From positions 630,359 through 694,358 of the forward strand of contig OZ246400.1 in assembly GCA_965230935.1 (NCBI GenBank): DNA of 64,000 bases. Reading direction: 5' to 3'. The notes under the pieces were generated by a model. It made no database searches. It saw only the letters and a list, made by a program, of their open reading frames with translations, and was not told the origin of the DNA. Every line of letters starts with the position of its first letter. Within the stretch, counting starts at the first letter, position 1. The stretch comes from an uncultured Gammaproteobacteria bacterium (GTDB lineage Bacteria; Patescibacteriota; Patescibacteriia; Magasanikbacterales; JBBTQS01). Below are positions 15,110-62,131 of this stretch, in pieces. The position numbers and the translations under genes were made by a program.

Positions 15110-15144
15110 AGTAGCTACAGTGTACCATATTTTGTATACTTCTT

Positions 15145-20358: not shown

Positions 20359-20380
20359 TTCTATTCATATTCTGTATATC

Positions 20381-20408
20381 AAACCCGTGCCAGTTCTGGC
20401 GCGGGTTT
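20381..20408. terminator. Bidirectional hairpin terminating both livF and the GC-rich gene at 20434-20934.
   Basis: aaacccgtgcc-agttct-ggcgcgggttt is followed on the plus strand by the GT tract gatgttgtgtattgtgtgtga. The same tract read on the minus strand is the CA-rich motif directly after the cassette stop codon. Confidence 0.5.
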
Positions 20409-20433
20409 GATGTTGTGTATTGTGTGTGACTGC

Positions 20434-20934
20434 TCACGGCAGCGGACCCCACCTTGCAGCATGAGAAGCTTGCTCGGCAGGAAACGTACAGCACATCATG
20501 CCAGTTGGTGATACCGGTTCATCGCCGTCAGCATCCCGGAACGAGCGAACCCGCGCATGCTCTCGCTCTAAATCACTAACAGTGAAAGCACAAGCAAGAG
20601 AATCGATCGTTGTGATCCCAAGATGTGCACACATCTGGTTCGTTGGGACGTACATGTGCGGAGAAGTTCGGGCAAGACGGGCAGGGTCAATCTCACCAAC
20701 GGTCACCTGAGAACCAAAGTACCCCATCCAGAAGTCGTCACCCCCCTTTAGGACATATTGTGGTACCATTCCTGGCTTCCAAAGCCACAAAATGAACCAC
20801 GAGACCCATTTGTACTCCATGCTTGGCGGGTACACGACGGCATACCCTGGGACAACCTCAATGGTGTGCTCAGCAGGATTCCACCGCTCTGTGGGATCGC
20901 CAAGCTTTTCCATTGATAAACGCAACACTTCCAT
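20434..20934 (-). CDS. Hypothetical protein, GC-rich cassette A (166 aa), no recognisable family.
   Basis: ORF at about 62% GC against a roughly 43% backbone. Strong SD AAGGAGGGG 6 nt upstream of the ATG at 20932-20934. -10 TATAAAT (plus strand 20959-20965) with a weak -35. No motif I recognise (MEVLRLSMEKLGDPTERWNPAEH...). Confidence 0.55.
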   Translation of the reverse strand: MEVLRLSMEKLGDPTERWNPAEHTIEVVPGYAVVYPPSMEYKWVSWFILWLWKPGMVPQYVLKGGDDFWMGYFGSQVTVGEIDPARLARTSPHMYVPTNQMCAHLGITTIDSLACAFTVSDLEREHARVRSFRDADGDEPVSPTGMMCCTFPAEQASHAARWGPLP

Positions 20935-21073
20935 TGTTTACCCCTCCTTAGGAGACCTATTTATAGGTTACATTGTGTAGAAAATACTACGACACCCCAA
21001 ACAAAATAGTCCAATTTTTTGCAATTATTTGTCTAATTTTATATACTAAATCTGTCGAAACTTTTTCTACAAC

Positions 21074-32334: not shown

Positions 32335-32366
32335 ACTCATCTCGTCATACGACACAAAAAAACAAG

Positions 32367-32389
32367 GCCCGGCAGTTCTGCTCGGGTCG
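32367..32389. terminator. Bidirectional terminator between the DUF5667 gene and GC-rich cassette B.
   Basis: ggcccggcag-ttctg-ctcgggtc hairpin. A7 upstream (a T7 run on the minus strand) and a GT tract gtcgtgtcgttgtgttgaattgtgtgttcg downstream. The hairpin loop is cagttctg, the same loop as the terminator at 20381-20408. Confidence 0.5.
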
Positions 32390-32418
32390 TGTCGTTGTGT
32401 TGAATTGTGTGTTCGTGA

Positions 32419-32958
32419 TCACACCACGGCGATCTCGAAATAGACGCTTCGCCCATCCTCGAACTCGAGCATCATCACTGCGGGCCGATAAATGGCCTCA
32501 CGCTTGTGATTCTGGAGTGCGGCGCGGCGCATTTGCCACCAGGCACGCCAGGTGGCCGGACGAATCCTGATGATGGTTCCGGTTACGATGCGCGGTTTGC
32601 ACTCGATAATCTCGAGTCCCCAGTGCAACCTAGCAACCTCGTCCATCTCCGGCAACATCGCCGCCTGCTGATCGGTGATCGGCCGCGCAAACACCAGGTC
32701 CAATGCCAGGTGCCAAAACACCATCCACCAGCGCTCGATCCAAAACTTGTAGTTGGAGAGCAGAATGGTGATCGTTCGTGGGATCTGCCCAGCCTCGTGC
32801 GAGAGTCCGACCTGCTTGAGGTACATGGCGGCCTTCGCTCGCACATGTGCGGTACGTGCCGCCTGGCGCGCATCCGCTGTTGAAGCGCCTTGCTCCAACG
32901 CCTCGCGGTGCGTACACAGCGAGTACAATGTCCCCCCTTGGTTGCTGCTCATGAACAT
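32419..32958 (-). CDS. Hypothetical protein, GC-rich cassette B (179 aa), no recognisable family.
   Basis: About 63% GC. SD AAGGAGG 6 nt before the ATG at 32956-32958. Trp-rich segment FWIERWWMVFWHLALDL. No motif recognised. Confidence 0.5.
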   Translation of the reverse strand: MFMSSNQGGTLYSLCTHREALEQGASTADARQAARTAHVRAKAAMYLKQVGLSHEAGQIPRTITILLSNYKFWIERWWMVFWHLALDLVFARPITDQQAAMLPEMDEVARLHWGLEIIECKPRIVTGTIIRIRPATWRAWWQMRRAALQNHKREAIYRPAVMMLEFEDGRSVYFEIAVV

Positions 32959-32992
32959 CCTCCTTGGGGGAAACCCCTGTCATGAAACACTA

Positions 32993-33021
32993 ACTATAGT
33001 GTATCATAACCGAATTGTCAA
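32993..33021 (-). promoter_or_regulatory. Consensus sigma70 promoter of cassette B overlapped by a 16-bp palindrome.
   Basis: Minus strand: TTGACA, a 17-nt spacer, then TATAGT. The palindrome ACACTAACTATAGTGT (32987-33002) overlaps the -10 and matches the NrdR consensus at 14/16 positions. Confidence 0.5.
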
Positions 33022-37952: not shown

Positions 37953-40216
37953 ATGTTTTTTCTAAAAAAAGCCAGTATCAAAACGCGAGCAATGATTGAT
38001 GTTTCTTTTATCATTTTGTTCGTTGGATTGGTATTGTTTGTCACAGCGTATAGATCTGGAAAACAGACGTTTCAAAACCAAGTCATCAATGATTTAGAAA
38101 TTTTAGTCAATGTCCGAAAAGACCAAGTAAATTCTTTTTTAGATTCTATAAAAAATCGAGTAGTTGATTTTTCTTCAGACGGCTTTATTCAAAACAGCGT
38201 CCTAGATATCGAGAGAGGGAATCAAAGCCAATCAGCCCTAAAAACATATTTAAACAACCAAAAAAGTCATTGGATAACACTATTGATGGAATAAGTATTT
38301 TTGATTCCTCAGGTAATTTGGTAGTCTCTACCTTAAATAGAACACGAGATGATTTTGAACAGGAAATATCTTTTTTGCGCACGCTGCCCTATGTTTCTAT
38401 TGGAGAAGCGCACATACACCAGGACTTTGATGCAGCATCTCCCGACAAAGATGAAGGTATTAGTGGGTATATAGATGCTGTTTCACCAATCATTAGATCT
38501 ACTGATAAGTATCATATTGGATTTATTATCAATCATATACGTTTAGATGGATTGGAAGCAGTACTAATAGGAAAAACACAAAAGGGCGCGACGTTAACTG
38601 AATGCGATTTTGACTTTTCTTCCTCCAATACTCATGTAATAACCTCAAAAGGAAGGCATCTAGCCATGACATGTCGACATGGTCTTGAAAACTACGTATT
38701 CGATGTCTTACCTGTAAAAAAATGTGCACAAGGAGAAAAAACTTCGACACACTACACTGATTCTCGCGGGCATGATATTTATGGTGCATCAGCTTGTATG
38801 GATAATGGGTGGGTGGTTTTGACAGAAATAGATAAGTCTGAAATTGATGATTCATTGAATAAAATTTTACGTGGAATGACGCTAACCGGATTATGGTCAA
38901 GCGTGATGGTACTTATACTAGTATACTGGTATACACGTCGTCAGTTACAACCTATCGTATCTCTTACCCAAAAAATTGCAAAAAGAAAGGTTGGAAAACA
39001 AATTAAAAAAATAGATGGTAAATTTCCCGGAGAAATTTCATTACTTGTCCAGACTTTCAATACACTGTCTAGAAAAATTCTAAATAGGGAAAAACTCCTC
39101 ATCAAGCAAAAAGTGAAGGCTAGTAATTTAGCAAAGGAGCTTGAAAAATTCAAGCTTGCGGTTGACATGGCCTCGGACCAAATCGTGATTACTGATGCCG
39201 ATGCCAAAATTTTGTATGCAAATCTATCTACGAAAAAAATTACCGGCTTTTCAGTAGATGAAATGATCGGGAAAAAATCAGGAACTTCGGATCTGTGGGG
39301 TGGTCAAATGGACGAAAAATTCTACAAAAAACTATGGAATACTATTAAGATAAAGAAGTCGACCTTTTCTGGGGAGATTACAAATAAACGCAAAAACGGC
39401 GAAATTTACCAAGCATACAGCACGATCTATCCAATTGTAGATACCGAACAGAATGTTAAATTCTTTGTCGCAATTGAGCGCGATATCACAAAAGAAAAGG
39501 ACGTAGAAAAAATGAAAAGTGATTTTATCGCCGTAGCTTCTCATCAATTACGGGCACCGATCTCCGGAATTAAATGGACAATAGAGCTACTCCAACAAGA
39601 AAAGGGTATTCCCAAGAGAAGCAAAAAGCTGATAGTGGGGGCAAACGAAAGAATGGATAATTTGATTGAGCTTGTTGACCACTTATTGAATGTATCACGC
39701 ATAGAAAAAAATACGAGTGTTAAACCTAAAAAATTTGATCTTGTTGCTTCTTTGCGCGAAAATATAGAAGGATTTTCTCCCCGTACCAAACGAGGGAATC
39801 TTTCAGTATCCTTTGATCCAAAACCCAAAAAAATAATCTTAATGAGTGACGAAAAAATAATCAAAACTATTTTTGATTCTATATTCTCAAACGCCATCAT
39901 CCATACATTGGCTGGAGGATCAATTGCCGTGACAATGCGAAAACAAAAAGACACCTGCATATTGAAAATAAGAGACACTGGTATCGGGATACCGCGTAAA
40001 GATCAAAAAAATATTTTCTTAAAGTTCTTCAGAGCAAAGAATGCTAAAAAAATTAACACTGCTGGAACGGGGTTAGGCTTGTATACTGCAAAAATGGCGA
40101 CCGTATTACTCGGTGGAAAAATTAGCTTCACATCACAGGAAGGCAAGGGGACGACAATGACTGTGGTATTACCATTAAAATCAAAGTCTAAAAAAGTCGG
40201 AAAACACCTCGTATAA
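37953..40216 (+). CDS. Sensor histidine kinase (TM, extracytoplasmic sensor, PAS, HisKA, HATPase_c), interrupted by a +1 frameshift in an A6 run at 38260-38265.
   Basis: ORF 37953-38294 (TM plus sensor N-terminus) and ORF 38270-40216 (PAS, then the H-box SDFIAVASHQLRAPISGI, then the G-boxes DTGIGI and GTGLGLY). They fuse into one frame of about 760 aa if one A is added to the ccAAAAAAg run. Confidence 0.75.
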
Positions 40217-40226
40217 CAAATTATCT

Positions 40227-40634
40227 ATGAAATCATACAACAAGATAAAAAATGGGAAAACCTCTTTACGAAAGAAGATTCTATTTATAGAAGATGACGA
40301 ATTTTTACAGAATGTGTATCAATATGAGTTTGGAAACAAAAACATCACAGTTATTATGGCATCAGATGGTGAAGATGGTCTAAAAAAAGCTGAAAAAGAA
40401 AGGCCGGATCTCATCCTGTTAGATTTAATATTGCCAAAAATGGATGGATTTTCAGTGCTTGAAGAAATTAAAAAAGATCCTGAACTCAAAAATATCCCGG
40501 TCATTGTCCTTTCCAACCTAGGCCAAAAAAAAGACGTTCAAACTTGCAAAAAAATGGGTGCGGTCGACTACATTGTTAAGATGAACTCTCGATTTAGCGA
40601 GGTGGTCGAAAAAATCAACCAAAACCTTTCGTGA
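40227..40634 (+). CDS. Single-domain response regulator (REC only, CheY-like).
   Basis: 135 aa. KKILFIEDDEF ... LILLDLILPKMDGFSVLEEIK ... IPVIVLSNLGQ holds the phospho-acceptor Asp pocket. No output domain. Confidence 0.8.
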   Translation: MKSYNKIKNGKTSLRKKILFIEDDEFLQNVYQYEFGNKNITVIMASDGEDGLKKAEKERPDLILLDLILPKMDGFSVLEEIKKDPELKNIPVIVLSNLGQKKDVQTCKKMGAVDYIVKMNSRFSEVVEKINQNLS

Positions 40635-40732
40635 ACATGAATGCCTTTTCTTAGGTTGTTTACAACTTTGCAGGAGCGATGGGACACCATTCGAATATTT
40701 TTTGGTATATATAGTTGATTAGAAATAGCTCA

Positions 40733-41038
40733 TTATTCCATCCAACTTTCGTGCCCAATTAATACGTCTAAACGACTTCTTAAGTCTGCCAATTCTACTT
40801 CTTTTTCTGCAACACTTGTGTCAAATTCTTCTTTGGTCATACCTAAATCAACAGGATTATTTCTCTTATAAAAAGCCAAAAAATCTCTTAGTCGCAAATA
40901 CTCTTTTCTTTTTTCACTCATTTCTTCCTTAAGTCCTTTTTGTATTTCTCCAGACTCATTTCTATTTCTTGCCTTTTCAGACCATGCATCTACCCTTCCG
41001 CCTAAATCAGAATTAAAACCCTCTCTTTGTTCTAACAT
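40733..41038 (-). CDS. Hypothetical small protein.
   Basis: The track ORF extends to 41104 through AT-rich low-complexity codons. MLEQREGFNSD... is the more plausible start. No motif. Weak call. Confidence 0.3.
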   Translation of the reverse strand: MLEQREGFNSDLGGRVDAWSEKARNRNESGEIQKGLKEEMSEKRKEYLRLRDFLAFYKRNNPVDLGMTKEEFDTSVAEKEVELADLRSRLDVLIGHESWME

Positions 41039-41422
41039 ACTTTTGCTTACTCTATTTATCAATAGATTAGTTAGGTGTAGTTTATATAAAAATAACATAA
41101 GCATTTGTGAATGTAAACATCACCTCTCGACAGTTCTAAACATATTATCGTACCGTTGCAGGAGCAACAAGACTACATCCATCAAAGCTTTGTTAATCTG
41201 ATCGATAAATTCAAATCACTTACAAAATACTAAGTTTAGTAAAATTTCAATTTTCAAAATCAACTTTCACAACTTTTCCACATTTTGTGGACAGAAATTG
41301 CAAAACTGTGGATACATTTAGTATACACCAACAATTTTGTATAGACTTGTGTATACAAAAAATCGTAAGAATAGCGACTTTTTAAGCTTAATTTAAACAA
41401 AAAATAGCAAAATTTGCCGAAC

Positions 41423-41451
41423 TTGACAAAACCCTTTTTTTCGTGTATACT
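41423..41451 (+). promoter_or_regulatory. Consensus sigma70 promoter driving the non-coding unit upstream of dksA.
   Basis: TTGACA (41423-41428), a 17-nt spacer, TATACT (41446-41451). Confidence 0.5.
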
Positions 41452-41457
41452 AGTAAC

Positions 41458-41883
41458 AGTTCCTTAGAAAACCATTTCAAGTACGCATTAAAACGGGTGA
41501 CACCAAAAAAACATACGTGTCACAAGTCTTAAGAGCCGTGCTTCGATCGAATCATCCTCTTCCATTGCTACTGTTCTTAATTGCAAGGAAATCAAAATAA
41601 AACAAAGCGGGCGTAGTAGCTCCGCGAATAGCTCCGAGGTGCCCTATAGTCTTCCCTGTCTTGTGCAGGTCGAGGACGCGTGGATCACACCTTTCGAATG
41701 GTAGGAATGGCAAACAAACAGCCGATTGTGGGCTTGTTTGGACCGATGATGGTGGTCAGTGTACATCTTTGCGGTGTATAGCGATCACCATCATATGGAC
41801 CACGCTCACTCAACAGGCATCGGGGACTTACCTCCGGCCATCTATACACCTAGGGCGTCAGGACGTAAGTCCCTTGTTTTTTT
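41458..41883 (+). ncRNA. Candidate structured ncRNA or long regulatory leader (about 420 nt), family not identified.
   Basis: Bounded by the consensus promoter and a strong terminator (ggggacttacc ... ggacgtaagtccc then TTGTTTTTTT, 41822-41883). No ORF of 60 aa or more with an SD. Internal helices include gtgacac/gtgtcac (41507-41526) and a 9-bp stem gatgatggtg/caccatcat (41745-41796). It lacks RNase P, tmRNA and SRP RNA signature motifs. Confidence 0.35.
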
Positions 41884-48656: not shown

Positions 48657-49226
48657 ATGACACTGAGCAAGAGACAGAAAGAGATTCTGGGTTGCTTCCG
48701 GGATTACGTGGGCAACGCGCTCATGGCCCCCTTGGGCAATACCGACGTGTGGCTGGAATCAGGTGACGAGACCATCATGGAGGAGCTGGCCGCCATGGAC
48801 GAGTACCTGGCCAACGATGCGGGGGCTCTCGAGACCTTCCAGCAGTACCGTGAGCGGCTCCGTGAGCAATTCATCAAGGACCGGCCGGACTCGCCCACGT
48901 ACGAGGAGTGCATCGCCGCATTCCCGCACATGGCGGCCTGGGTTGACTGGGTCTGGGAGTTCGTGAACAGCCGTATGGAGGCCATGCACGCTGAGCGCGA
49001 CAGCCGGGCGGTGTACCGGGTGATGCGCTACACGATCCTGGGACAGGAGATCTTGAAGTTCGTCCGCAAGATCAGCAGGCTGGTGGTGATCATCTTCAAG
49101 TTCCAGGCGCCGACCCTGGATCCGGTGTACGCGTCGTATCTTCAGGAGAAACACCTGTTCGACCAGACGATGGCCGACACCTTCGGCACCACCAGCGACT
49201 CCGGAGGACCTGGAGTCATTCCCTGA
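48657..49226 (+). CDS. Hypothetical protein, GC-rich cassette C (189 aa), no recognisable family.
   Basis: About 61% GC. SD AGGAGAG 6 nt before the ATG. No own -35/-10 found, so possibly read through from rpsT past a T-less hairpin at 48576-48596. Followed by the CA tract ACACACTACACAACAACAACCC (49227-49250) and a terminator. Confidence 0.5.
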   Translation: MTLSKRQKEILGCFRDYVGNALMAPLGNTDVWLESGDETIMEELAAMDEYLANDAGALETFQQYRERLREQFIKDRPDSPTYEECIAAFPHMAAWVDWVWEFVNSRMEAMHAERDSRAVYRVMRYTILGQEILKFVRKISRLVVIIFKFQAPTLDPVYASYLQEKHLFDQTMADTFGTTSDSGGPGVIP

Positions 49227-49235
49227 CTCGACACA

Positions 49236-50189
49236 CTACACAACAACAACCCAATGCAGGAGCTCGCGCATCGACGCCGCTCCTGTTTTGATTTTGCGAT
49301 CCATTACTAATAAAATGCGCTCGCCATTGATCAACTCCACCTTACGATATCGCCCCAACAAGGGGAGTGTCTTTTTTACAACAAATGGATGCAACCCGAG
49401 TTTTTTTGCCAAATCTGCCGGATTCTCATTTGGATGTTCTTGCTGCGCACTATGCAAATCAAGCAAAATACGATATTGCCGAACGAGCATGCCAAATACC
49501 TGCATTGGCTCAGCGCCGTATCGCCATTGAGATTCAAGAAGTTGCAACGCCCGGCTCCGATCCTTTTGGGTAATCGCATCCATCAACGCAAAAATAGCAT
49601 CCTCAGTTTTAGCTTCAACAAAAATATCAACGTCTTTAATAGTAATTGCTCTGTCGGCACAATACATCACTAACTGATGCAGTCGATTTGCAAGCTTCCA
49701 TGAATCATCAGCAAGCGCATCAGCGATTCGTGTTACGGCACCCGGCTCAATCGTACCACCATATTCACCAACCAACTTCTTAATCCACGTCTTGAGTTGT
49801 GCGCCACTGGGGAGTTCAAATTGTTGCGCAAACTTTTGTGTGCGCAAAACATCAAAGAGTGCACTTTGTGCTTTTTTTACTTTTTCAAGCTCAGTCCACA
49901 ACACAAATACCGTGTCCTCACGTAACGCGAGCATGGTATGTTGCTGCTCAAACCATTCAAATAGTATTTTACTTGCCTGCTCAAAAAGACGTGGCACAAT
50001 CACCATGCGCTTTTGCGCTAAAAACGGTGCTGCGAGCAACAACTCTTTGTTTTGTGCATCAGACTGGGATAAATCTAACGTCACTACGTTCATTCCAGAC
50101 GGATCACGATCTTGAATAAACTTATCCTGCATCTTATGCAGTTGCGCATGAAGACGATAGGTATCTGCCCCGTACAAAAAAATAATCAT
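49236..50189 (-). CDS. holA: DNA polymerase III delta subunit.
   Basis: MIIFLYGADTYRLHAQL... matches the HolA N-terminal domain. I placed the start at 50189, 1 nt from the polA stop. The track ORF extends to 50264. The last about 20 codons read through the cassette C terminator hairpin and end inside its CA tract. Confidence 0.7.
   Translation of the reverse strand: MIIFLYGADTYRLHAQLHKMQDKFIQDRDPSGMNVVTLDLSQSDAQNKELLLAAPFLAQKRMVIVPRLFEQASKILFEWFEQQHTMLALREDTVFVLWTELEKVKKAQSALFDVLRTQKFAQQFELPSGAQLKTWIKKLVGEYGGTIEPGAVTRIADALADDSWKLANRLHQLVMYCADRAITIKDVDIFVEAKTEDAIFALMDAITQKDRSRALQLLESQWRYGAEPMQVFGMLVRQYRILLDLHSAQQEHPNENPADLAKKLGLHPFVVKKTLPLLGRYRKVELINGERILLVMDRKIKTGAASMRELLHWVVVV
49256..49297 (+). 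terminator. Intrinsic terminator of cassette C. It lies inside the 3' end of the holA reading frame.
   Basis: caggagc-tcgcgcatcgacgcc-gctcctg followed by TTTTGATTTT. Confidence 0.6.
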
Positions 50190-52830: not shown

Positions 52831-52864
52831 AGAACATCATCACCATACCACTAAAAACAAACAA

Positions 52865-52899
52865 GGGCTACCACGGTGACGCGAGTCGATGTGGTACCC
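52865..52899 (-). terminator. Terminator of GC-rich cassette D1, 34 nt upstream of the polA start codon.
   Basis: Minus strand: gggtaccac-atcgactcgcgtcacc-gtggtagccc followed by TTGTTTGTTTTT. It is preceded by the CA tract ACAACACAACATTTACAACC. Confidence 0.5.
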
Positions 52900-52933
52900 A
52901 AGTTGGTTGTAAATGTTGTGTTGTCCTCGGTGC

Positions 52934-53703
52934 TCAGCGGCGCTCCAGCGGACCGAAGAGGTGATCGCTGATCTGCTCGAGCATGCCGCCCGGCAGGTCC
53001 GTGCTGCGGCCCAGCTCCTGGGCCGTGCCGGAAGCACTCCAGACCTTGCCATCACGCCGGTAGTACACGTCCATGACCCGGTCGTGCGGATCCAGGTATG
53101 CGATCTGCAACGCGTCGCAGCCCTCGATGGCGATGGGCTCACCGTGCTCGGCGACCATCTCCCAGTCGGTCCCGGCTTCATGCGCAGCGGGAAGCCTCGA
53201 CGGGTGAGCACCGCGACCCCCGGCGTGGGACCACCCAGGTGGGCGTTCCGGAGTCGGTTGTCACCCAGGTACATGGCCAACACCGAGGCCCCATCACGCA
53301 CCAGATCGTACTGCTGCAGGTACCCGGGAAGGATTGCGCCGCTGGTGAGCAGCTGCTTGCAGAGCTTGGTGACGGCGTCGGCCACCCAGCCCTGGCACAC
53401 CCCCATGCCCAACACCTGATCGAGCGTGATCAGCGCCCGTTTGCTGTGGCCGTTTGTGCCACACACCTGGATGCTGTACACGCGCCCGTAGCGCGGATCC
53501 GGATCCTCGATCATGGCCGGTGCGGAGTTGGTCTCGTCGCTGTTCTCGGCGAACAACACCTCCACCACCAACCCATCGGGGTTCCCCTCATGCACGATCT
53601 GATCGTGCCTGATACGAACGCCGAGCAACTCGTCTCCGACGTGCGCGTCGAGAATGCCCAGCAGGCCGCCCGAGAGCTTGCCTGCCTTCCACGTCTGCCG
53701 CAT
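52934..53703 (-). pseudogene. GC-rich cassette D1: hypothetical protein (about 256 aa if repaired) interrupted by a -1 frameshift at a G5/C5 run (53216-53220).
   Basis: Frame X (from the ATG at 53701-53703, MRQTWKAGKL...) reads as real protein for about 165 aa, then degenerates into S/R/T-rich text. Frame Y (... MVAEHGEPIAIEGCDALQIAYLDPHDRVMDVYY ... FGPLERR, stop at 52934) reads as protein. Adding one G in the G5 run joins the frames. About 68% GC. A consensus promoter (TTGACA, 16-nt spacer, TACACT; plus strand 53751-53778) and SD TAAGGAGGT lie upstream. Confidence 0.45.
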
Positions 53704-53834
53704 GGCAAACCTCCTTATCTACATTGCTACGCCAGACGCGCAGTAGTATGAGTGTAACTAAAATAAGGAAAATGTCAAGGAGTTTGGCGCAAATTCAAAA
53801 TATTTCCTTATGAAAACCCCTAAAATCACAAAAG

Positions 53835-53872
53835 CCACATGCGTTGTTGATGCCGGTAGGCAAACGCAGTGG
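53835..53872 (-). terminator. Terminator of GC-rich cassette D2.
   Basis: Minus strand: ccactgcgtttgcc-taccggcatc-aacaacgcatgtgg followed by CTTTTGTGATTTT. It is preceded by the CA tract TTACACACAAAACACATACAACC (plus strand GT tract 53904-53926). Confidence 0.45.
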
Positions 53873-53995
53873 CTCTTGGCTCTCGCTAAGTCGCGAGTGC
53901 AAAGGTTGTATGTGTTTTGTGTGTAATCCGATCCGCACGACCCTCAGCGCGAAGGCCGAGGACTACCGCGCCTTACGGCGCCGGCAGTGGCCTGA

Positions 53996-54991
53996 TCAGG
54001 CCGCGGCCCGGATGGGCGCGGCCAACTTGCGGCCGATGTCCTCGATCGACGCGCCCGGGATGCCGGCCGCCTCGAACTGCTCGACGCCGCCGATCGTCGG
54101 GAGCGGGAAGCCGTCGTCGTCCTTGGCGAACGTCGAGAGGCCGACCTTGTCCTTCTTCCACGGGGCGGTCCCCTCGAGGCCGACGACGCGCTGGATGCCG
54201 TTGTCGATCTCGTTGGTGCCGAGGCTCGAGAAGGTCAGCTTGCCCGTCTCGTCCTTCTCGCCCTTGAGGGTCAGGATCTCGCGCTTGCCCGTCTCGTCCT
54301 CGATGTGCACGCCCAGGTTGAACGTGGTCGAGTCGTCGGCGCGGTAGTAGCGCGTGCAGGTGTGGTGCTTGCCGCGGACCTTGAAGCCGCCGTCGATGGT
54401 CTTGAAGCCCTCGCCGGCGAGCAACTTGCCCGCGTTGTTCTCGTCCAGCATCTGGATCTCGCCGATCTTGTTGGTGTACATGATCGACGCGCCCGGGATG
54501 AACGAGGCCGTGCGCACGCGGCCGGTGGACGGCAGCGTCGTGACCTGCTTGGTCGCCACGTCGACGAAGAGCACCGTGCCCTTGTCGTAGCGGCTCGCGA
54601 GCGCGGTCATGCCGCCGTACTTGCCGCCGAACATGTCGTCGACCGCCGCCCCGATCTCGCCGAGCACCCGCTTGCCGTTGAGGTTGGCGGCCGGGTAGTC
54701 GTCGTCCACGGTCACCAGCTGGCGCCGGATCGGGCCGCTGTACGTCGCGACCGTCTGGATCGCGATGTAGCCCTCGGTCGTGCTGAACTTCTCGACCGGC
54801 TCGCCCGTGGCCCCCTCGGCGCCGACCTGGTTGATCGCGACCTGCACGCGCACGTCCTTGTACGCGCAGGTCAGGATGTCCATGCCGTGCACCCACAGGG
54901 CGACGAGCTGCGTCGGCAGCACGCCCGCGAGCAGGCCACCCAGGTCTTTGAGCTGGATCTCGGTCTTGAAGGTCTGGCGTTTGATGTCCAA
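53996..54991 (-). CDS. Hypothetical protein, GC-rich cassette D2 (331 aa), Gly/Thr/Asp/Lys-rich and probably beta-rich; family not recognised.
   Basis: About 68% GC with extreme GC3. TTG start with SD TAGGAGAC 7 nt upstream. The overlapping ORFs on both strands are high-GC artefacts. Confidence 0.5.
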   Translation of the reverse strand: MDIKRQTFKTEIQLKDLGGLLAGVLPTQLVALWVHGMDILTCAYKDVRVQVAINQVGAEGATGEPVEKFSTTEGYIAIQTVATYSGPIRRQLVTVDDDYPAANLNGKRVLGEIGAAVDDMFGGKYGGMTALASRYDKGTVLFVDVATKQVTTLPSTGRVRTASFIPGASIMYTNKIGEIQMLDENNAGKLLAGEGFKTIDGGFKVRGKHHTCTRYYRADDSTTFNLGVHIEDETGKREILTLKGEKDETGKLTFSSLGTNEIDNGIQRVVGLEGTAPWKKDKVGLSTFAKDDDGFPLPTIGGVEQFEAAGIPGASIEDIGRKLAAPIRAAA

Positions 54992-55104
54992 GATGAAGTC
55001 TCCTAACAGTTTCTACCCGACAGCGCGTCGGGGCTGGAAATGACGTCTCGTCCCCTCACTCCCCCTCACACACTTCTGGCGGGTTTGGAAACAAAGCTGA
55101 CGAG

Positions 55105-55133
55105 ATTCTACAGCAAACTCAAATCCATGTCAA
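55105..55133 (-). promoter_or_regulatory. Consensus sigma70 promoter of cassette D2.
   Basis: Minus strand: TTGACA (plus 55128-55133), a 17-nt spacer, TAGAAT (plus 55105-55110). About 110-nt GC-rich 5' UTR with a hairpin cccgac-gcgct-gtcggg just before the SD. Confidence 0.5.
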
Positions 55134-55244
55134 GAGCAAAATTACGCCTAAAATTAAAGAAGTTTTTTCACACAAACAAAAAATGCGGACAATATTTGTC
55201 TCACATTGAGAAAAAAGCTCGAATCTGCTATCCTGGGGATGCTG

Positions 55245-55316
55245 GCACCGTCGCCAAGTGGTAAGGCAGGGGTTTGCAAAACCTCTATTCGCGAGTTCGA
55301 TTCTCGCCGGTGCCTC
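55245..55316 (+). tRNA. tRNA-Cys (anticodon GCA).
   Basis: Hand fold. Acceptor GGCACCG/CGGTGCC. 3-bp D stem. Anticodon stem GGGGT/ACCTC with loop TTGCAAA. T arm GCGAG-TTCGATT-CTCGC. Confidence 0.85.
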
Positions 55317-55323
55317 ACAACAG

Positions 55324-55383
55324 AAAAAAGGTATAAATTTTATTGCTAAGGCCGGGTAAAGCAACAAAATTTATACCTTTTTT
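55324..55383. terminator. Long perfect inverted repeat (17-bp arms) immediately 3' of tRNA-Cys.
   Basis: aaaaaaggtataaatttt ... aaaatttatacctttttt with a 24-nt loop. Bidirectional terminator-like. Confidence 0.55.
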
Positions 55384-55412
55384 CGTAAATATATATCTAA
55401 TTTTACTTTATT

Positions 55413-55981: not shown

Positions 55982-58927
55982 ATGCCAGTGAGTAGACACA
56001 ACTCAACCAATCCACGCCGCAAGAGTCGTCATTATGGCTCGGGAGGCTCTTCCTCATCACCAAAACACAGAAACAAAAAACCACAGTTTGGCCGTGGAGG
56101 CAAATCAGTTATCCAGATGGTGTTTGCATTTGTAAAAAAACTCATGCGAGGACTCTGGCGACCATTTCGCAAAAAATTCTCCTGGAAGCGAGCCGTTCTT
56201 GGTGCGATTACCCTTGGGGTACTCGCATTTGCACTCGTAACAATCTACGCTGCGTGGATCTCGCGTGATCTTCCTGATCCAAATAAGCTTGGTTCACGCC
56301 AAGTTGCGCAAAGCACAAAAATTTACGATCGCACCGGTGATCATCTCCTGTACGAAATCTTTGCTGACAAAAAACGAACTATTGTTGAACTCGAGGATAT
56401 CCCGTCCTATGCCATCAATGCTGCAATTGCCGTAGAGGATTCAAAATTTTATGAGCACCGAGGAATTCGCCTCACCTCTATTTTCCGCGCGGCAGTCTCA
56501 AACCTACTTGGACTTGGTTCAGGAAAAGGCGGAGCATCAACACTCACCCAACAACTAGTCAAAAACACTATTGTTGGTAATGAACGATCGATCAATCGAA
56601 AAATTAAAGAGGCAATCCTCTCTCTTCAACTAGAACGCAAAAACACCAAGCAAGAAATTCTTAAGTTGTACTTTAACGAAATCCCGTACGGTTCCACCAA
56701 CTATGGAATCGAGGCTGCTGCACAAAGCTACTTTGGCAAAAGCAGTCGTGACCTCACACTCGACGAAGCGGCAACCTTGGCCGGGATTGTGAAAGCGCCA
56801 ACCTTTTACCTCAACAACCCGGAAAAGCTTACCGAGCGTCGTAACTTCGTGTTAACCAGAATGGTTGCTGAGGGATTTATTACCCAAGAGCAGGCAGACA
56901 CGGCAAGTGACAAACCACTTGAGCTTAAAGAACGGCTCACTGGAATTGAAGCACCGCATTTTGTGCTCCATGTCCGAGAACTCCTTACTGAACAATTTGG
57001 AGAAAAGATCGTGGAAACCGGTGGACTCAATGTGATTACCACACTTGATTATGACAAGCACAAAATCGCTGAAGAGGAAATCACACGATTCCTGGTAGAT
57101 GATGGGGCAAGTGAAACCTACAATATTGGTAACGCTGCGCTTACTGCAATTGACCCCAAAACTGGACAAGTACTGGTTATGGTTGGTTCGCGAGACTTTT
57201 TTGATGAAGAACACGACGGACAAGTAAATGTGGCATTGCGCCCACGCCAACCCGGTTCATCATTCAAACCATTTGTATACACTGCCGGTTTTGAAAAAGG
57301 CTACACTCCAGAAACTTTACTCTACGACGCCAAGACTAACTTTGACGCGCGCAATGGCGCAAGCTACTCACCAACAAACTATGATGGGGAGGAGCGCGGT
57401 CCAATTACCGCTCGTGCCGCACTCCAAGGATCGCTCAACATTCCAGCGGTCAAAATGCTGTATCTAGTTGGCGTACAAAACATGGTTAACTTTGCGCAGC
57501 GCTTTGGCTACAGCACGTTTAATGACCCTGACCGATTTGGATTGTCTATGGTGCTTGGGGGAGCAGAGGTTAAGCTCTTGGAACACGCCGCTGCCTACGC
57601 AGCACTCGCCAACGAGGGAGTGTATCATAAACCAAGTTTTCTACTGTCAGTTAAAGACCCGGACGGAAGCGAGCTTTTCAAATGGAAAGAACGCAAAGAA
57701 AAAGCAATCGAACCAGAACTCGCGCGAACTATCAACAATGTTATGGCAGATGATGCCGCTCGTGCGTATATCTTCGGTCTAGGATCTACCCTTACTCTCC
57801 CCGGACGAGCAGCTGCAGCTAAAACAGGAACTACCAATGATTTTCGTGATGGCTGGACTCTTGGATTTACTCCGCAACTTGCCGCTGGGGTATGGTCTGG
57901 AAACAATGACAACAGTCCCATGACTCGTGCTGGCGGAACCCGAGCGGCATCACCAATTTGGAATCGATTTATGCAACGTGCACTTGAAGATGTACCAGCA
58001 GTGGGCTTTGGTGATTCTATAGAAAACGATGCACAAAAAGCAGTTCTGCGCGGTACTGACTCTGGAAAAATCACCCTACTGGTCGACACCATTTCTGGCA
58101 AGCTTGCCACCTCTTCAACTCCAGATGAATTTATTGAAGAGCGCACCTATTTACAACCCCACTCAATCCTCCACTATCTCAAAAAGGACGACCCGCGAGG
58201 AGATCCACCATCTGATCCGTCCAGTGCTGACCCACAATATACGAACTGGGAATCTGCAGTACAAGAATGGATTACTGCGCAACAAGCAAAACAAGAAGAA
58301 GGGGAGAGTATTGTGCTTGAACTTCCTCCAACAGAGTATGACGATGTCCATGACCCAGCGCTTGCACCAAGTGTGACGATTACAACCCCACCAGCAAATT
58401 CACTTTTTAGCTCACGTACGATTATCGCTGATGTTGATGCCAGTGCTCCGCGAGGTATTGCACAAGTGCGTTGGTTTATTGATGATCTTCAAGTCAAGGT
58501 GCGCGATCGGTTCCCATTCTCACTCACCTATAATGCCAAAACAATTGAAAATGGCGAACACACCCTAATCGCCAAAGCCTATGATGATGTCGGAAATGTT
58601 GCGCAAAGCGAAATCCCATTCTCTCTAGACGCACCACCAGCACCAGCAGAGATTACTTGGCGCTCACCCAAACAAGATGCAACCTACTTTGCGTCCAGTT
58701 TTCCACTTACCTTCACTTTTGGAGTATTTAAACCAGAAACGATTGATGAAATTTCTGTAGCTGCGTCCAAAGATGGACAAACAACGACCATCTTCACCAC
58801 AAACGAACAAAAAGAAGAGCACTCGTTTGAATGGGCGAGTGCCTCTCCTGGAGAATATACATTGTCCTTCTCAGCGCAATCCTCAAACGAGGTCACCAAC
58901 AACACTGTTCTGGTCACCATCAAATAA
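55982..58927 (+). CDS. Penicillin-binding protein 1A-type bifunctional transglycosylase/transpeptidase with C-terminal Ig-like repeats.
   Basis: 981 aa. Basic N-terminus then a TM helix. The GT51 motifs EDSKFYEHRGI and ...QQLVKN are present. The transpeptidase SSFKPF (SxxK) and KTGTTND motifs are present. The last roughly 250 aa resemble Big/FN3-like domains. Confidence 0.9.
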   Translation: MPVSRHNSTNPRRKSRHYGSGGSSSSPKHRNKKPQFGRGGKSVIQMVFAFVKKLMRGLWRPFRKKFSWKRAVLGAITLGVLAFALVTIYAAWISRDLPDPNKLGSRQVAQSTKIYDRTGDHLLYEIFADKKRTIVELEDIPSYAINAAIAVEDSKFYEHRGIRLTSIFRAAVSNLLGLGSGKGGASTLTQQLVKNTIVGNERSINRKIKEAILSLQLERKNTKQEILKLYFNEIPYGSTNYGIEAAAQSYFGKSSRDLTLDEAATLAGIVKAPTFYLNNPEKLTERRNFVLTRMVAEGFITQEQADTASDKPLELKERLTGIEAPHFVLHVRELLTEQFGEKIVETGGLNVITTLDYDKHKIAEEEITRFLVDDGASETYNIGNAALTAIDPKTGQVLVMVGSRDFFDEEHDGQVNVALRPRQPGSSFKPFVYTAGFEKGYTPETLLYDAKTNFDARNGASYSPTNYDGEERGPITARAALQGSLNIPAVKMLYLVGVQNMVNFAQRFGYSTFNDPDRFGLSMVLGGAEVKLLEHAAAYAALANEGVYHKPSFLLSVKDPDGSELFKWKERKEKAIEPELARTINNVMADDAARAYIFGLGSTLTLPGRAAAAKTGTTNDFRDGWTLGFTPQLAAGVWSGNNDNSPMTRAGGTRAASPIWNRFMQRALEDVPAVGFGDSIENDAQKAVLRGTDSGKITLLVDTISGKLATSSTPDEFIEERTYLQPHSILHYLKKDDPRGDPPSDPSSADPQYTNWESAVQEWITAQQAKQEEGESIVLELPPTEYDDVHDPALAPSVTITTPPANSLFSSRTIIADVDASAPRGIAQVRWFIDDLQVKVRDRFPFSLTYNAKTIENGEHTLIAKAYDDVGNVAQSEIPFSLDAPPAPAEITWRSPKQDATYFASSFPLTFTFGVFKPETIDEISVAASKDGQTTTIFTTNEQKEEHSFEWASASPGEYTLSFSAQSSNEVTNNTVLVTIK

Positions 58928-60046
58928 TTATTGCCGGATCGGCATCACAATGTAGAGATACTCTTGTGAATCTTTTGGAGCAAATACCACTGGTGCTGTT
59001 GCATTAGTAATTTTAATTTGTGATTCTTTCGTATCAATTGCATTAAGTCCATCGAGTACATACCGATAATTCAACAACGTACTCCCTTCTTCACCAGAAA
59101 GCTCAGCAGTAAGAGTGGAAGCGTGTTCACCAAGTTGTGTGCTTGTAGACGAAATACCAATTGTTCCTTCGTCCACATTACAATCAAGCACCACTGCATT
59201 AATTCCTTGGCTTGCAAACAAACTTGCTGCTTTAATCTCCTGCACAAGCGCATCAGTTAAAAATATCGCTGATGTTTTATCTTCTTTTGGAATAATTTGC
59301 GTGTAGTCAGGATATTTCCCCTCAATTTTTCGACTCGTTATTGTCACATCACCCAAGACAAACACCACCTGTGCATCATCAAACAACATGGTGAGTTGCT
59401 CAGCCCCACCATGCACATGTAACACACGGGAAAGTTCAAATAAGGTTCGGTAGGGGATAATACTCTCAAACACTTCTGTGTTTGGTGACTCAGCTAATGG
59501 TACCACCACTTCAGCAAGCCGATAACTATCTGTTGCCGCCATAGTCAACATCCCTGGGGTTTTATTGAACTGGAAATACACACCGGAAAGCTCTGGTCGA
59601 ACCTCACTTCGTGAGCAGGCAAACAATACTCGTGTCAACGCTAATTTAAATTCTCCTGAAGTCAAATTAAACTGATACTTTGTCTCAATCTTTGGCACAA
59701 TAGGAAAATCTTCTGCTGAATTCCCTTTGATTCTTGTTTTACTTTTTCCAGCCTTAACCACAAGCTCATTATCCTCAAGTGACACTGTAACCGTATCACT
59801 TGAAACCAATTGAATATATTCAACAAGTGTTTTTGCCGGAACAGTAAACGAACCGTTTTCTTCGATCTTGGCCCGCACAGTTGTTTTGATTGCCATCTCA
59901 AGATTTGTGGTGGCGAGATTTACTGTTCCATCATCTGTGCTAATAAGCACATTGTTTAATATCGGCAAATGAATATTCTTTCCTGCTGCACCACTTACTT
60001 GTTGTAAGGCATGCATGAGATTTTCTTTGGTACATGTGAACAACAT
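58928..60046 (-). CDS. dnaN: DNA polymerase III beta sliding clamp.
   Basis: 372 aa, three-domain clamp (MLFTCTKENLMHALQQVSGAAG...). Its stop abuts the PBP stop with zero spacer. Confidence 0.9.
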   Translation of the reverse strand: MLFTCTKENLMHALQQVSGAAGKNIHLPILNNVLISTDDGTVNLATTNLEMAIKTTVRAKIEENGSFTVPAKTLVEYIQLVSSDTVTVSLEDNELVVKAGKSKTRIKGNSAEDFPIVPKIETKYQFNLTSGEFKLALTRVLFACSRSEVRPELSGVYFQFNKTPGMLTMAATDSYRLAEVVVPLAESPNTEVFESIIPYRTLFELSRVLHVHGGAEQLTMLFDDAQVVFVLGDVTITSRKIEGKYPDYTQIIPKEDKTSAIFLTDALVQEIKAASLFASQGINAVVLDCNVDEGTIGISSTSTQLGEHASTLTAELSGEEGSTLLNYRYVLDGLNAIDTKESQIKITNATAPVVFAPKDSQEYLYIVMPIRQ

Positions 60047-60322
60047 AGGCGCTATCTAATATTATATTTTTATTTTTTAATTATAGTTGTAGTAGTAGTG
60101 TCTGTGGATAGTGTGGAGAACGTACATTTTTGTTTTGTTTTTCTAGTAAAGTTTTGTGTTTTGTGTTTTTGAGTGGTGTGGGTGGATTGTGCGAAGATGT
60201 GTGCGAAGTGTGTGTGAAATTTTGTTTTTGATTTTTGGGTGTGGGTAGTCCTTTTCTTTTGTGTGTGTTTTGTGAATGTATTTTTGTATTTGTGCAAAGG
60301 CTACACACAGCATGTACGCAGG
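60047..60322. other. dnaA-dnaN intergenic origin-type region: AT-rich 35-bp block, a DnaA box, and a long GT-rich (plus) / CA-rich (minus) tract.
   Basis: AT-only block at 60055-60090. TGTGGATAG at 60103-60111 is an 8/9 match to the DnaA box TGTGGATAA. About 200 nt follow with almost no C on the plus strand (ttttgtgttttgtgtttttgagtggtgtgggtgg...). Confidence 0.5.
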
Positions 60323-61720
60323 TCATTCGTTCATTTTCGCTTTAAGTGTTTCAATTTCCTGTTTTAATTGAATATTGTCTTGGATTTTTGTACTGATTTT
60401 TGTGTGCGCATGCATTGCTGTTGTGTGATCCCGTCCCCCAATTGAGGTTCCAATCGCCGGGTAGGACAATTTAAGCTCCTCGCGCATTAAAAACATGGCA
60501 ATTTGTCGTGGAAAGGCAAGTCGCTTTTCTCGTGATGTACCTAATACCTCATCTTCAGTTATGCCGTAGAAATCCGCCACCATTATTACAACCTGCTTCG
60601 GTGTTTTTGGTTGACGTGCACCAGTAGTTTCAAGAGTGGAGACCAGGTTTTTGACGGTATCCATGCTTGGTGGGATATTTTTGAGCTCGTGATAGGCAAC
60701 AACTTTATTAAGCACTCCCTCAAGTTCACGGATGTTGTTGTGCGCAACACTTGCAATAAGAGTGAGGTGCTCTTTCGTAAGATTAAATCCTCGTGCTTGG
60801 CACTTGTATTCCAGAATTGCAATACGAGTTTCTAGGTCTGGAGCAGCAACATCAGCAATCATTCCCCACTCAAACCGTGACTTAAGACGATCTTCCAAAG
60901 AGGAGATAGCTTTTGGTGGTCTATCAGAGGATAAGATAATCTGTCGGTTTGATTGGTGAAGTTCATTAAAGGTGTGGAAAAATTCTTCTTGGGTACGTTC
61001 TTTACCAGCTAAAAATTGCACATCATCAATGATGAGCAAATCAACGTTTCGATATCGGTTTTTAAAGCTCTTGGCATCTCCGGTACGCACTGAGTTCAAA
61101 AAATCATTGGTGAATTTTTCACAAGATACATAGAGGAGGTTGTTGATACGTTTGGTGCGCAAAAGCTCAGCTCCGATAGCTTGCAAAAGGTGGGTTTTAC
61201 CCAGTCCTACGCCACCATAAATGAACAGTGGGTTATAGGCCACTCCGGGACGGGTTGCGACCGCCTGTGCCGCAGCGTAGGCAAGTTCATTGGTCTTACC
61301 AACAATAAAGGAGTCAAAGGTATATCGTGGATTAAGGCCAAATTCAGTGATACGCTGTGTTGGCGCGGTTACTGCAGCGACTTGTTCAGTGGCAGCTGGC
61401 GTCTCGGTTGTTTCTTCAGAAATTTTTTCTGGCTGTTCCGATTGCTCTGGCTGTTTTGGAATATGTTTAATTTGCTCTACCTTATAGATAATTTTTTGAA
61501 TAGGAGTACCAGAGACTTTTTCAAGTGTTTTCAAAATTTTGGCGTGGTATTTTTTTTCAAGCCAAGCTTTAGTAAAAGTATTGGGGACACACACAATGAC
61601 ATTTCCATTTTCAAAAATACCAATACCAGTATTGTGAAACCAGGTTGTAAAGTTAGCCTTGCTAAGATTGAGTTCAATCTCCGCGAGTACAGCTTCCCAA
61701 AGCTGTTGGTTGTTAAGCAT
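60323..61720 (-). CDS. dnaA: Chromosomal replication initiator DnaA.
   Basis: 465 aa. AAA+ Walker A GGVGLGKTHLLQAIG, Walker B LLIIDDVQF. C-terminal DNA-binding domain. Confidence 0.95.
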   Translation of the reverse strand: MLNNQQLWEAVLAEIELNLSKANFTTWFHNTGIGIFENGNVIVCVPNTFTKAWLEKKYHAKILKTLEKVSGTPIQKIIYKVEQIKHIPKQPEQSEQPEKISEETTETPAATEQVAAVTAPTQRITEFGLNPRYTFDSFIVGKTNELAYAAAQAVATRPGVAYNPLFIYGGVGLGKTHLLQAIGAELLRTKRINNLLYVSCEKFTNDFLNSVRTGDAKSFKNRYRNVDLLIIDDVQFLAGKERTQEEFFHTFNELHQSNRQIILSSDRPPKAISSLEDRLKSRFEWGMIADVAAPDLETRIAILEYKCQARGFNLTKEHLTLIASVAHNNIRELEGVLNKVVAYHELKNIPPSMDTVKNLVSTLETTGARQPKTPKQVVIMVADFYGITEDEVLGTSREKRLAFPRQIAMFLMREELKLSYPAIGTSIGGRDHTTAMHAHTKISTKIQDNIQLKQEIETLKAKMNE

Positions 61721-61899
61721 ACAGTGGCGATGCGTTACGAGCTATAGTACTTCTCAGTCTAACACTACTTTGGTAAATGAAAAAGGGTTTTGCAAAATGA
61801 ATTTTGGGCATGAAGTGGGGATGGGATGTGGATGGAACAAGCGGGTATTTGGCTTGCAAAAAATAGCGTTGCATGATATAGTCTCGGTGCTAAAAATCT

Positions 61900-62052
61900 A
61901 TGCCAAAGCGCACATATCAACCAAAACGTCGTAAGCGAGCCCGCACCCATGGTTTTCGTAAGCTTATGAGTACCAAAAATGGGCGAAATCGCTTGAAACG
62001 CCGTCGAGATAAGGGTCGAAAGCAATTGGCAGTAGGAACCCGAAGAGTGTAA
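61900..62052 (+). CDS. rpmH: 50S ribosomal protein L34.
   Basis: 50 aa, [50 protein letters not shown]. Below the ORF-track size cut-off. Promoter TTGCAA, a 17-nt spacer, then TATAGT directly upstream. A DnaA-box-like TGTGGATGG lies at 61828-61836. Confidence 0.9.
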
Positions 62053-62131
62053 TACAATATTGCTGTTTTCTGTGTTATCCCGGCATGGTGGCCGGTTTTT
62101 TGTTATACTAGGCACAATCTATTGAACATGT

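Follow-up and report, generated by a model that had tools for sequence, protein, structure and literature searches.

Results

A GC-rich block with two genes lies between tRNA-Cys and polA

The window analysed here, i.e. 64,000 nucleotides of contig OZ246400.1 from an uncultured bacterium of the Patescibacteria (candidate phyla radiation, CPR), has a mean GC content of 0.444 and contains, at about 52900-55050 between polA and a tRNA-Cys gene, a block in which the GC content amounts to 0.60-0.76 (100-nt windows). No other part of the window deviates as strongly in composition. The block is about 2.2 kb long, has sharp composition boundaries, is interrupted by an AT-rich gap at 53700-53850 and is filled by two genes on the minus strand, D2 and the frameshifted D1. 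The tRNA-Cys(GCA) gene (55244-55316, plus strand) is divergent from D2 and the block is thus located on the 5' side of the tRNA. The GC content at third codon positions (GC3) is 0.38-0.43 in native genes, 0.82-0.85 in D1 and 0.988 in D2. At the sequence level, D2 and D1 each have a TTGACA promoter, a leader with a Shine-Dalgarno (SD) sequence and a hairpin terminator. An earlier, sequence-only reading of the window had described the GC-rich block, the promoters TTGACA-17-TAGAAT and TTGACA-16-TACACT, and two genes with a promoter each, and these points are confirmed, as the block has 64-68% GC in a genome of 44% GC and consists of two autonomous transcription units. Perfect TTGACA-N16-18-TAnnnT sites occur 12 times in the window with 2.45 expected, i.e. 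this type of promoter is the normal form in the genome and not peculiar to the block.

The sequence of the block is identical in two MEGAHIT assemblies from two runs of PRJEB17505, and the frameshifted D1 open reading frame (ORF) is also present on the 931-kb NCBI contig. This identity across assemblies excludes assembly chimerism. A Logan contig (L002, run ERR2281801) carries an identical D1-polA junction and stops inside D1 at 53136, about 35 nt downstream of the likely D1 frameshift site (see below); the break could reflect population heterogeneity or a drop in coverage in the GC-rich block.

D2 and its transcript

The D2 coding sequence (53996-54991, minus strand) encodes 331 residues and begins with a TTG codon, which aligns with Met1 of both homologues described below. 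The GC contents at its three codon positions (GC1/GC2/GC3 = 0.61/0.43/0.988) show an extreme three-base periodicity, and the GC3 value fixes the reading frame. The D2 promoter, TTGACA-17-TAGAAT (55133-55105, minus strand), aligns with the promoters of the homologue contigs L083 and L084 and with those of the genes at the same position in the two closest relatives, L036 and L003. With the transcription start predicted from the sequence, the 5' leader comprises about 107 nt (54992-55098, minus strand). Its 5' terminus can form the stem CUCGUC/GACGAG, and a G-rich tract that resembles an SD sequence, GUGAGGGGGAGUGAGGGG, precedes the SD sequence UAGGAG, which is located 8 nt before the TTG start. 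A structured leader of roughly 110 nt had been proposed previously; the length is essentially retained, whereas the folding energy is unexceptional (z = -1.2 relative to shuffled sequences). A riboswitch or other known RNA in the leaders was rejected, as an Rfam scan returned tRNAs only and no leader reached a gathering score.

The 3' untranslated region (UTR) of D2 (53816-53995, minus strand) contains several hairpins and a T-tract. From 5' to 3' it comprises a GC-rich hairpin (~53994-53954), a CA-rich tract (53927-53904), a small hairpin (53897-53882), and the terminator hairpin (~53876-53835) with its T-tract (53834-53822). A 131-nt segment of this 3' region folds with -44 kcal/mol (z = -4.1).

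The D2 family is small and shares promoter, leader and locus

When 1.84 billion representative proteins were searched exhaustively with HMMER, two full-length homologues of D2 were obtained, P0001 (42% identity, 332 residues) and P0002 (32%, 329 residues), the only ones found among about 15 billion proteins. Apart from these two proteins and D1 itself, no relative of D2 or D1 was found in 5.8 billion protein clusters (word-indexed search), GTDB genomes, JGI metagenomes, IMG/VR or the INPHARED phages, and the cassette proteins have no homologue in any GC-rich organism or virus searched. Both homologues are encoded on contigs of 1.3-1.4 kb (L083 and L084) with AT-rich flanks of CPR type, behind a TTGACA-17-TAnnnT promoter and a leader that can be aligned with that of D2 (CAGCTTTGTTT...GTGAGGGGG). 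Moreover, L084 opens with the 5' half of a tRNA-Cys gene, which places its gene at the same locus as D2. The first 43-61 nt of each leader of the family fold on their own into a hairpin closed by a 6-bp stem; the sequence of this stem varies and yet pairing is kept (CUCGUC/GACGAG, UCUGCC/GGCAGA, UCGCCC/GGGUGA; three sequences, z = -0.8 to -1.5), which suggests that D2-family leaders may carry a stabilising stem at the 5' terminus.

The members of the family are only 30-42% identical to each other in pairwise comparison, and their composition is nearly the same, with GC3 values of 0.988, 0.967 and 0.958, GC1 of about 0.6, GC2 of about 0.43 and Lys/Arg ratios of 1.0-1.5. At four-fold degenerate sites of conserved residues D2 and the L083 gene have the same base in 54% of the cases, with 46% expected at saturation; for the two pairs that include the L084 gene agreement is 71% and 65%, compared with an expectation of ~47-49%. 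A or T make up 0-6% of these sites in all three members (A 0-1%), as against 57-60% A/T at native four-fold sites, and over the whole genes 147 of the 152 Lys, Glu and Gln codons end in G. The amino acid usage remains close to that of native proteins: in the pooled cassette proteins, i.e. those of the block and of the further cassettes described below, Gly, Ala, Arg and Pro (GARP) account for 28.3% and Phe, Tyr, Met, Ile, Asn and Lys (FYMINK) for 22.5% of the residues, in native proteins for 25.5% and 25.2%, respectively.

D2 may be a soluble β-propeller-like protein

Sequence searches against Pfam, PHROGs, PADLOC, NCBIfam and the PDB were empty for D2, D1, the orphan proteins of cassettes A and B (see below), and the genes between tRNA-Cys and polA in L036 and L003; the best PHROG E-values were 0.029-0.09, none of them significant. 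D2 had been described as β-rich and unassignable, and this description stands, the protein being without a match in Pfam, PHROG, NCBIfam or PADLOC. AlphaFold2 with the single sequence is uninformative (predicted local distance difference test, pLDDT, 33), and with the alignment of the three sequences it yields a model with a mean pLDDT of 48.6, a predicted template modelling score of 0.50 and a β-rich core comprising residues 80-262. A HMMER search gave a marginal match of D2 to a WD40 protein (E = 8.6e-4), and neither WD40 nor any other repeat family of Pfam is matched. Together with the size of ~330 residues this marginal match makes a propeller with six to seven blades a reasonable lead, and D2 may tentatively be regarded as a soluble, β-propeller-like protein, as a lead rather than an assignment. 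Profile searches with D2 and D1 led to no family, and Foldseek, recommended in the sequence-only reading, gave TM-scores of only 0.2-0.3 with the low-confidence D2 model. The idea that D2 might form pores finds no support; the low-confidence model resembles a soluble β-propeller, and a signal peptide or membrane segment is not evident to the eye in the sequence, no predictor having been used. All C-termini of the D2 family end in Ala-Ala (...IRAAA in D2, at 53999-54010, ...AIAA and ...LAAAA in P0001 and P0002), reminiscent of ssrA-like C-terminal degrons.

D1 is frameshifted and ends next to a putative polA promoter

The D1 promoter, TTGACA-16-TACACT (53778-53751, minus strand), is followed by a leader with the SD sequence AAGGAGG. 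Its -35 box is bracketed by an inverted repeat, ATAAGGAAA (53763-71 and 53803-11), that had been reported to span 10 bp; only 9 bp are perfect, and the shuffle control for this repeat covered repeats of 10 nt. The repeat is a possible candidate operator. D1 starts with ATG at 53703 and stops at 52934 (minus strand), and the reading frame changes in between. The upstream frame (53174-53703, ~177 codons) has a GC3 of 0.85 and the downstream frame (52934-53170, ~78 codons) of 0.82; the offset of the latter by -1 means that the sequence is one base short, and the repaired protein has 256 residues. The frameshift, present in two assemblies, had been assigned to a G5 run (53216-53220). Sliding GC3, in contrast, crosses over at codons 172-182 (53157-53187, with a resolution of 10 codons), and between the G5 run and AAGCCGGGACC the upstream frame has a GC3 of ~0.87 compared with ~0.59 for the downstream frame (hand count, 15-17 codons). 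As the upstream frame thus keeps its high GC3 past the G5 run, the base was more likely lost at the GGG at 53171-53173, contained in AAGCCGGGACC near CCGGGA.

Repaired D1 has no homologue beyond its own frameshifted ORF, and we infer that D1 is a decaying pseudogene that has lost one base. Expression of D1 by a programmed -1 ribosomal frameshift or by transcriptional slippage in a G run would explain why the shift is fixed in every assembly and why both halves keep a high GC3, and two G runs, G5 at 53216-20 and G3 at 53171-73, are found in the region where the frames overlap. Nevertheless, we regard this as improbable, since a canonical X XXY YYZ slippery heptamer is found neither at 53171-78 nor at 53216-22, runs of three and five G are short for transcriptional slippage, and conservation of the shift has nothing to be compared with because D1 lacks homologues.

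In the 3' UTR of D1 (52853-52933, minus strand) a CA-rich tract (52925-52902) is followed by a hairpin (52899-52865) and a T-tract (52864-52853), which ends ~22 nt before the ATG of polA at 52830. An extended -10 box, TGGTATGGT (52850-52842, minus strand), is located 11 nt before this ATG, and no SD sequence is present. The junction between the terminator tail and polA can be aligned in the window genome, L003 and L036, the extended -10 element reading TGGTATGGT, TGGTATTCT or TGGTAATCT and lying 11-24 nt before the ATG, in each case without an SD sequence. The sequence-only reading had left polA the choice between read-through of the terminator and a promoter inside the 3' end of the cassette. 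The conserved element answers this question in another way, as polA most likely has a separate promoter of the extended -10 type just past the D1 terminator, and the position of this element suggests that the polA mRNA is nearly leaderless. The proposal that the cassette was dropped into a pre-existing polA upstream region is not supported, the junction itself being conserved in the relatives.

A 19-nt motif, CTTnTnTnnTTTTAGnnGT, occurs on the minus strand without mismatches at 52847-52865, 53816-53834 and 55144-55162, i.e. exactly at the three borders of the cassettes, with no further copy in the window. We do not regard it as a recombination site, as the pattern was derived from the same three sites and overlaps the terminator T-tracts and the polA -10 region.

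The slot is conserved and filled by different genes in relatives

The best polA matches come from the metagenome-assembled genomes L036 (79%) and L003 (66%), with Magasanikbacteria next (49%). The order dnaN, PBP1a, 3D-domain gene, tRNA-Cys, slot, polA, holA, rpsT, rmuC is kept in L036 and L003, and the core neighbours are collinear across the three genomes, with 51-79% identity to the proteins of the window. In both relatives the slot contains a 1.1-kb block with 64-68% GC, and its gene, which codes for 360 residues in L036 and 336 in L003 (gene GC 64-66%, GC3 0.88 and 0.89), is oriented as D2 and located behind TTGACA-17-TATCAT or TTGACA-17-TAGAAT. An empty orthologous slot was thus not found in these close relatives. 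Between the two slot genes identity is as low as 23% (E = 1e-9), although the polA genes of these relatives are 61-73% identical, and neither BLASTP nor hhalign detects similarity between them and D2 or D1. The comparison of orthologous loci, named in the sequence-only reading as evidence that could overturn it, thus largely speaks against that reading: a GC-rich gene in the same orientation, though one not similar to D2 or D1, is present in the slot of both relatives, and the two D2 homologues have AT-rich flanks with a related promoter and leader. L003 and L036 are the only ones among the 80 polA loci compared with GC3-rich slot genes. Only in the distant L009 is the tRNA-Cys gene directly beside polA, at 15 bp and in tandem orientation.

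Further cassettes are dispersed in the region

About seven cassettes (D2, D1, A, B, E, F and G) are found within 74 kb. Cassette A (32345-33021, minus strand) has a TTGACA-17-TATAGT promoter and a 179-residue orphan ORF (32419-32958, GC3 0.76), followed by a CA-rich tract and a terminator. Cassette B (48657-49300, plus strand; 189-residue orphan ORF at 48657-49226, GC3 0.84) directly follows rpsT, and no separate promoter is evident for it. Its terminator hairpin, T-tract and CA-rich tract (49236-49300) are antisense to the 16 conserved codons at the end of holA (MDRKIKTGAASMRELLHWVVVV and the stop), so that, judged by its sequence, the end of holA doubles as the putative terminator of the convergent cassette. 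In L003 a gene at the position of B has a GC3 of 0.55 and weak similarity (E = 0.007). Cassette G (20380-20990, minus strand) contains a 166-residue orphan ORF (20434-20934, GC3 0.53), a -35 element TTGGAC, and a CA-rich tract and hairpin at the 3' end. Two cassettes are located just past the right end of the window and are numbered on contig L086: cassette E (14700-15352, plus strand; ORF 14784-15248) with a TTGACA promoter, and cassette F (20030 to beyond 20747, minus strand; ORF from 20096 to beyond 20747), whose 5' end is outside the sequence covered.

In all seven the orphan ORF is accompanied by a CA-rich tract (ACACAACA...), a hairpin and a tail at the 3' end, T-rich in most of the cassettes. 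A TTGACA promoter is present in A, D1, D2 and E, the six cassettes with a known start have an SD leader, and the leaders comprise ~50-110 nt. The 3' UTRs fold with z-scores of -1.0 to -7.5, the strongest being those of D2, B and the three relatives. In D2, E and the L083 and L003 genes a GC-rich hairpin comes immediately after the stop codon. Pairing between the 5' and 3' UTRs, i.e. mRNA circularisation via the CA-rich tract and a GU-rich leader, was dismissed because RNAduplex gave results no better than for shuffled sequences in eight cassettes.

In public annotation D2 is covered by antisense ORFs of 233 and 165 residues (53996-55006, plus strand; L001, L085, L086), and thus the exact D2 protein is not on record. 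Likewise, a 203-residue antisense ORF is called over cassette E.

Genomic surroundings

The cumulative GC skew turns at ~60 kb, beside dnaN (58928-60046) and dnaA (60323-61720). The genes rnpA and yidD come after dnaA, and 58900-62100 corresponds to the replication origin region. The GC block is thus 5-7 kb from oriC and, as we infer, co-directional with replication. A 25-nt inverted repeat (55323-55384, 96% complementary), situated between tRNA-Cys and the 3D-domain gene, probably terminates transcription in both directions. At 38000-41500 the composition deviates the other way, in a second outlier of 30-37% GC that contains a PAS/HisKA histidine kinase and a response regulator.

Discussion

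The GC block contains members of a class of orphan cassettes in a CPR lineage that are saturated in GC3, hyper-divergent and missed by public annotation; a literature search found no paper on GC3-rich genes in Patescibacteria or on PRJEB17505. The sequence-only reading had seen a foreign insertion at a tRNA hotspot, and this is largely not supported, as neither an integrase nor an att repeat is found and the block is on the 5' side of tRNA-Cys. We give about even chances to the alternative that D2 and D1 are resident, actively maintained cassettes rather than a recent import. Native-like amino acid usage, near-saturated synonymous sites and a GC3 of at least 0.96 throughout the D2 family together make GC3 appear actively maintained, since with 57-60% A/T at native four-fold sites neutral decay should have erased it. 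Additionally, the absence of a GC-rich homologue, the native composition of the proteins, and the AT-rich promoter and leader that travel with the genes favour long residence.

Based on these findings we propose that the window genome, which belongs to a lineage near Magasanikbacteria, holds two promoter-to-terminator cassettes in a conserved accessory slot between tRNA-Cys and polA. Each cassette would be driven by a consensus σ70 promoter of native type, followed by a leader of ~50-110 nt with a strong SD sequence, to which the D2 family adds the 5'-terminal stem-loop. The ORF would encode a lineage-restricted, very fast-evolving protein in codons that nearly all end in G or C, and a multi-hairpin 3' UTR would close in an intrinsic terminator. 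This architecture may give rise to an unusually stable and strongly translated mRNA, and the G/C-ending codons may be kept by selection or by a transcript-limited bias that acts on synonymous sites and not on the protein. Such codons may strip the message of AU-rich endonuclease targets. D2 would then be an intact gene for a probably abundant soluble protein and the loss of D1 a case of birth-and-death turnover in the slot, the products presumably evolving and turning over very fast, as in conflict or host interaction.

A wider reading, which we hold with somewhat less confidence, is that the lineage keeps dispersed orphan cassettes, about one per 10 kb, in which a transcript-limited force drives synonymous sites to G/C while the proteins diverge beyond recognition and retain native amino acid usage. 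Such a force could be selection for RNase-resistant, long-lived mRNA or a targeted GC-biased mutator. Self-templated loss of adenine as in diversity-generating retroelements was rejected as a mechanism, as no reverse transcriptase family is found among the called genes and the bias between A and T at third positions differs between cassettes; a long internal repeat that might serve as template was not found in the block.

Several observations weigh against resident, maintained cassettes. High expression and mRNA stability are deduced from sequence features, and the 5' leaders of the cassettes fold no better than shuffled controls (z = -0.1 to -2.1). The mean pLDDT of the D2 model is low. The estimate of saturation comes from 40-61 sites, and two of the three pairs are above the expectation. 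The slot genes of the nearest relatives are unrelated to D2 and D1, so that replacement is no less possible than extreme divergence. A high GC3 is not seen in core genes, even in rpsT, which argues against translational selection as its cause and calls for another selective agent. Finally, amelioration of imported genes would also generate the GC3 gradient across the cassettes (D2 0.99, E 0.85, B 0.84, D1 0.83, A 0.76, F 0.72, G 0.53); GC-rich hairpins and some of the D2 leader extend beyond the ORF, which looks like flanking GC-rich DNA that arrived with the gene; and the L003 counterpart of B has a GC3 of only 0.55.

Import would have been recurrent, from an unsampled pool of GC-rich donors (e.g. 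a phage, a plasmid or a lineage of hosts) into a hotspot that tolerates insertions, and followed by amelioration. D2 would have arrived last, with progressively greater ages for D1, B, E, A, F and G. The sharp composition boundaries, the grading of GC3 from 0.99 to 0.53 among cassettes that are built alike, hairpins behind the stop codons that look like donor terminators, the orphan status of all cassette proteins and the unrelated families in the slot of close relatives fit such a history. We nevertheless consider it rather unlikely. Although GC-rich organisms are densely sampled in the databases, none of their genomes or viruses contains a homologue. A donor of high GC content should show GC1 and GC2 in step with GC3, an expectation taken from general background, and the values observed are 0.61/0.43/0.99; the Muto-Osawa relationship predicts a GC1 of ~0.73 at a GC3 of ~0.99, instead of the 0.61 of D2. 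Amino acid usage, accordingly, is native-like without a shift to Gly, Ala, Arg and Pro. The members of the D2 family have a common AT-rich promoter and leader, at least two of the three are at tRNA-Cys, and they have diverged to 30-42% identity and yet keep a GC3 of at least 0.96. Moreover, no integrase, att site or transposase was found: no recombinase family of Pfam is present among the called genes, the neighbours being the 3D-domain gene, PBP1a, dnaN, dnaA, polA and holA, and there is no direct repeat of the tRNA 3' end, the only match being one of 17 nt (82%) within the coding region of D1.

If strains frequently exchanged the slot by natural transformation, GC-biased gene conversion at such a hotspot of recombination would drive unconstrained sites towards G/C. 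This would account for the concentration of the GC rise at synonymous sites in genes with native-like amino acids and for the fast turnover of the slot, and CPR bacteria generally carry competence genes. Conversion would, however, involve heteroduplexes in the homologous flanks, and polA, holA, the tRNA gene and the promoters show no rise in GC, which disfavours this process; the boundaries follow the transcript or ORF rather than flanking homology, and to our knowledge an equilibrium GC3 of ~0.99 would need a conversion bias far above any reported for bacteria. Gene conversion is therefore quite improbable. Hardly credible is the possibility that the block is a structured non-coding RNA or an artefact of assembly or contamination. 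In AT-rich genomes, islands of high GC content frequently correspond to structured RNAs, and the public antisense calls over D2 are implausible as genes; on the other hand, D2 has the codon periodicity of a coding sequence, its protein is found at full length in two homologues, the Rfam matches are confined to tRNAs, independent assemblies are identical, and related species from other studies are built alike.

Compositional outliers are routinely taken as recent horizontal transfer. Here, the outlier signal is almost purely synonymous, the outlier is conserved at one locus across species, and the only known members of the D2 family occur in the same AT-rich context. If GC3 is indeed actively maintained, strong gene-specific selection or biased mutation would act on synonymous sites in an ultra-small symbiotic bacterium and be tied to its fastest-evolving proteins, i.e. 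the composition of single genes would be controlled in a previously undescribed mode. As fast-evolving proteins, the cassette products are natural candidates for host interaction or conflict, and spurious antisense gene calls leave the real proteins largely out of the protein databases and of any analysis that draws on these.

Of the named concepts, the phage moron comes closest in form, i.e. an independent promoter-gene-terminator unit between prophage genes (Cumby, Davidson and Maxwell 2012, PMC3594210). The cassettes resemble morons in being single-gene units of odd composition with their own σ70 promoter and terminator and with products that are mostly unknown. Unlike morons, they reside in the core chromosome among housekeeping genes near oriC, the slot is conserved across species, and the compositional difference is mostly synonymous and seemingly maintained. 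With tRNA-linked islands and integrative elements they share the position next to a tRNA, the odd composition and the variable content between relatives, but integrase and att repeats are lacking, and the block is on the 5' side of the tRNA, divergent from it, 2.2 kb long and surrounded by native, conserved regulatory flanks. Integron cassettes are likewise small single-ORF units with a 3' hairpin and many orphan ORFs; in contrast to them, the cassettes described here have no intI, attI or attC consensus, carry their own promoters and are dispersed, and their hairpins, which are unrelated in sequence and followed by T-tracts, are terminators rather than attC sites.

For the architecture of the transcript the cry genes of Bacillus thuringiensis, with a STAB-SD at the 5' end and a stem-loop that acts as retroregulator at the 3' end (PMC4113751), and S-layer genes offer a parallel. 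In these, too, the promoter is strong, the leader is long and has G-rich tracts of SD type far before the start codon, the 3' stem-loops are strong, and the products vary greatly between strains. The likeness in stability is one of sequence; a signal peptide or crystal-protein domain is not seen in the cassette products, and an extreme GC3 is no feature of the cry and S-layer genes. As to the protein, the ~330 residues of D2 would fit the six to seven blades of a WD40, YVTN or lactonase β-propeller, in line with the weak WD40 match; no repeat family of Pfam is matched, and the pLDDT and TM-scores of the model are low.

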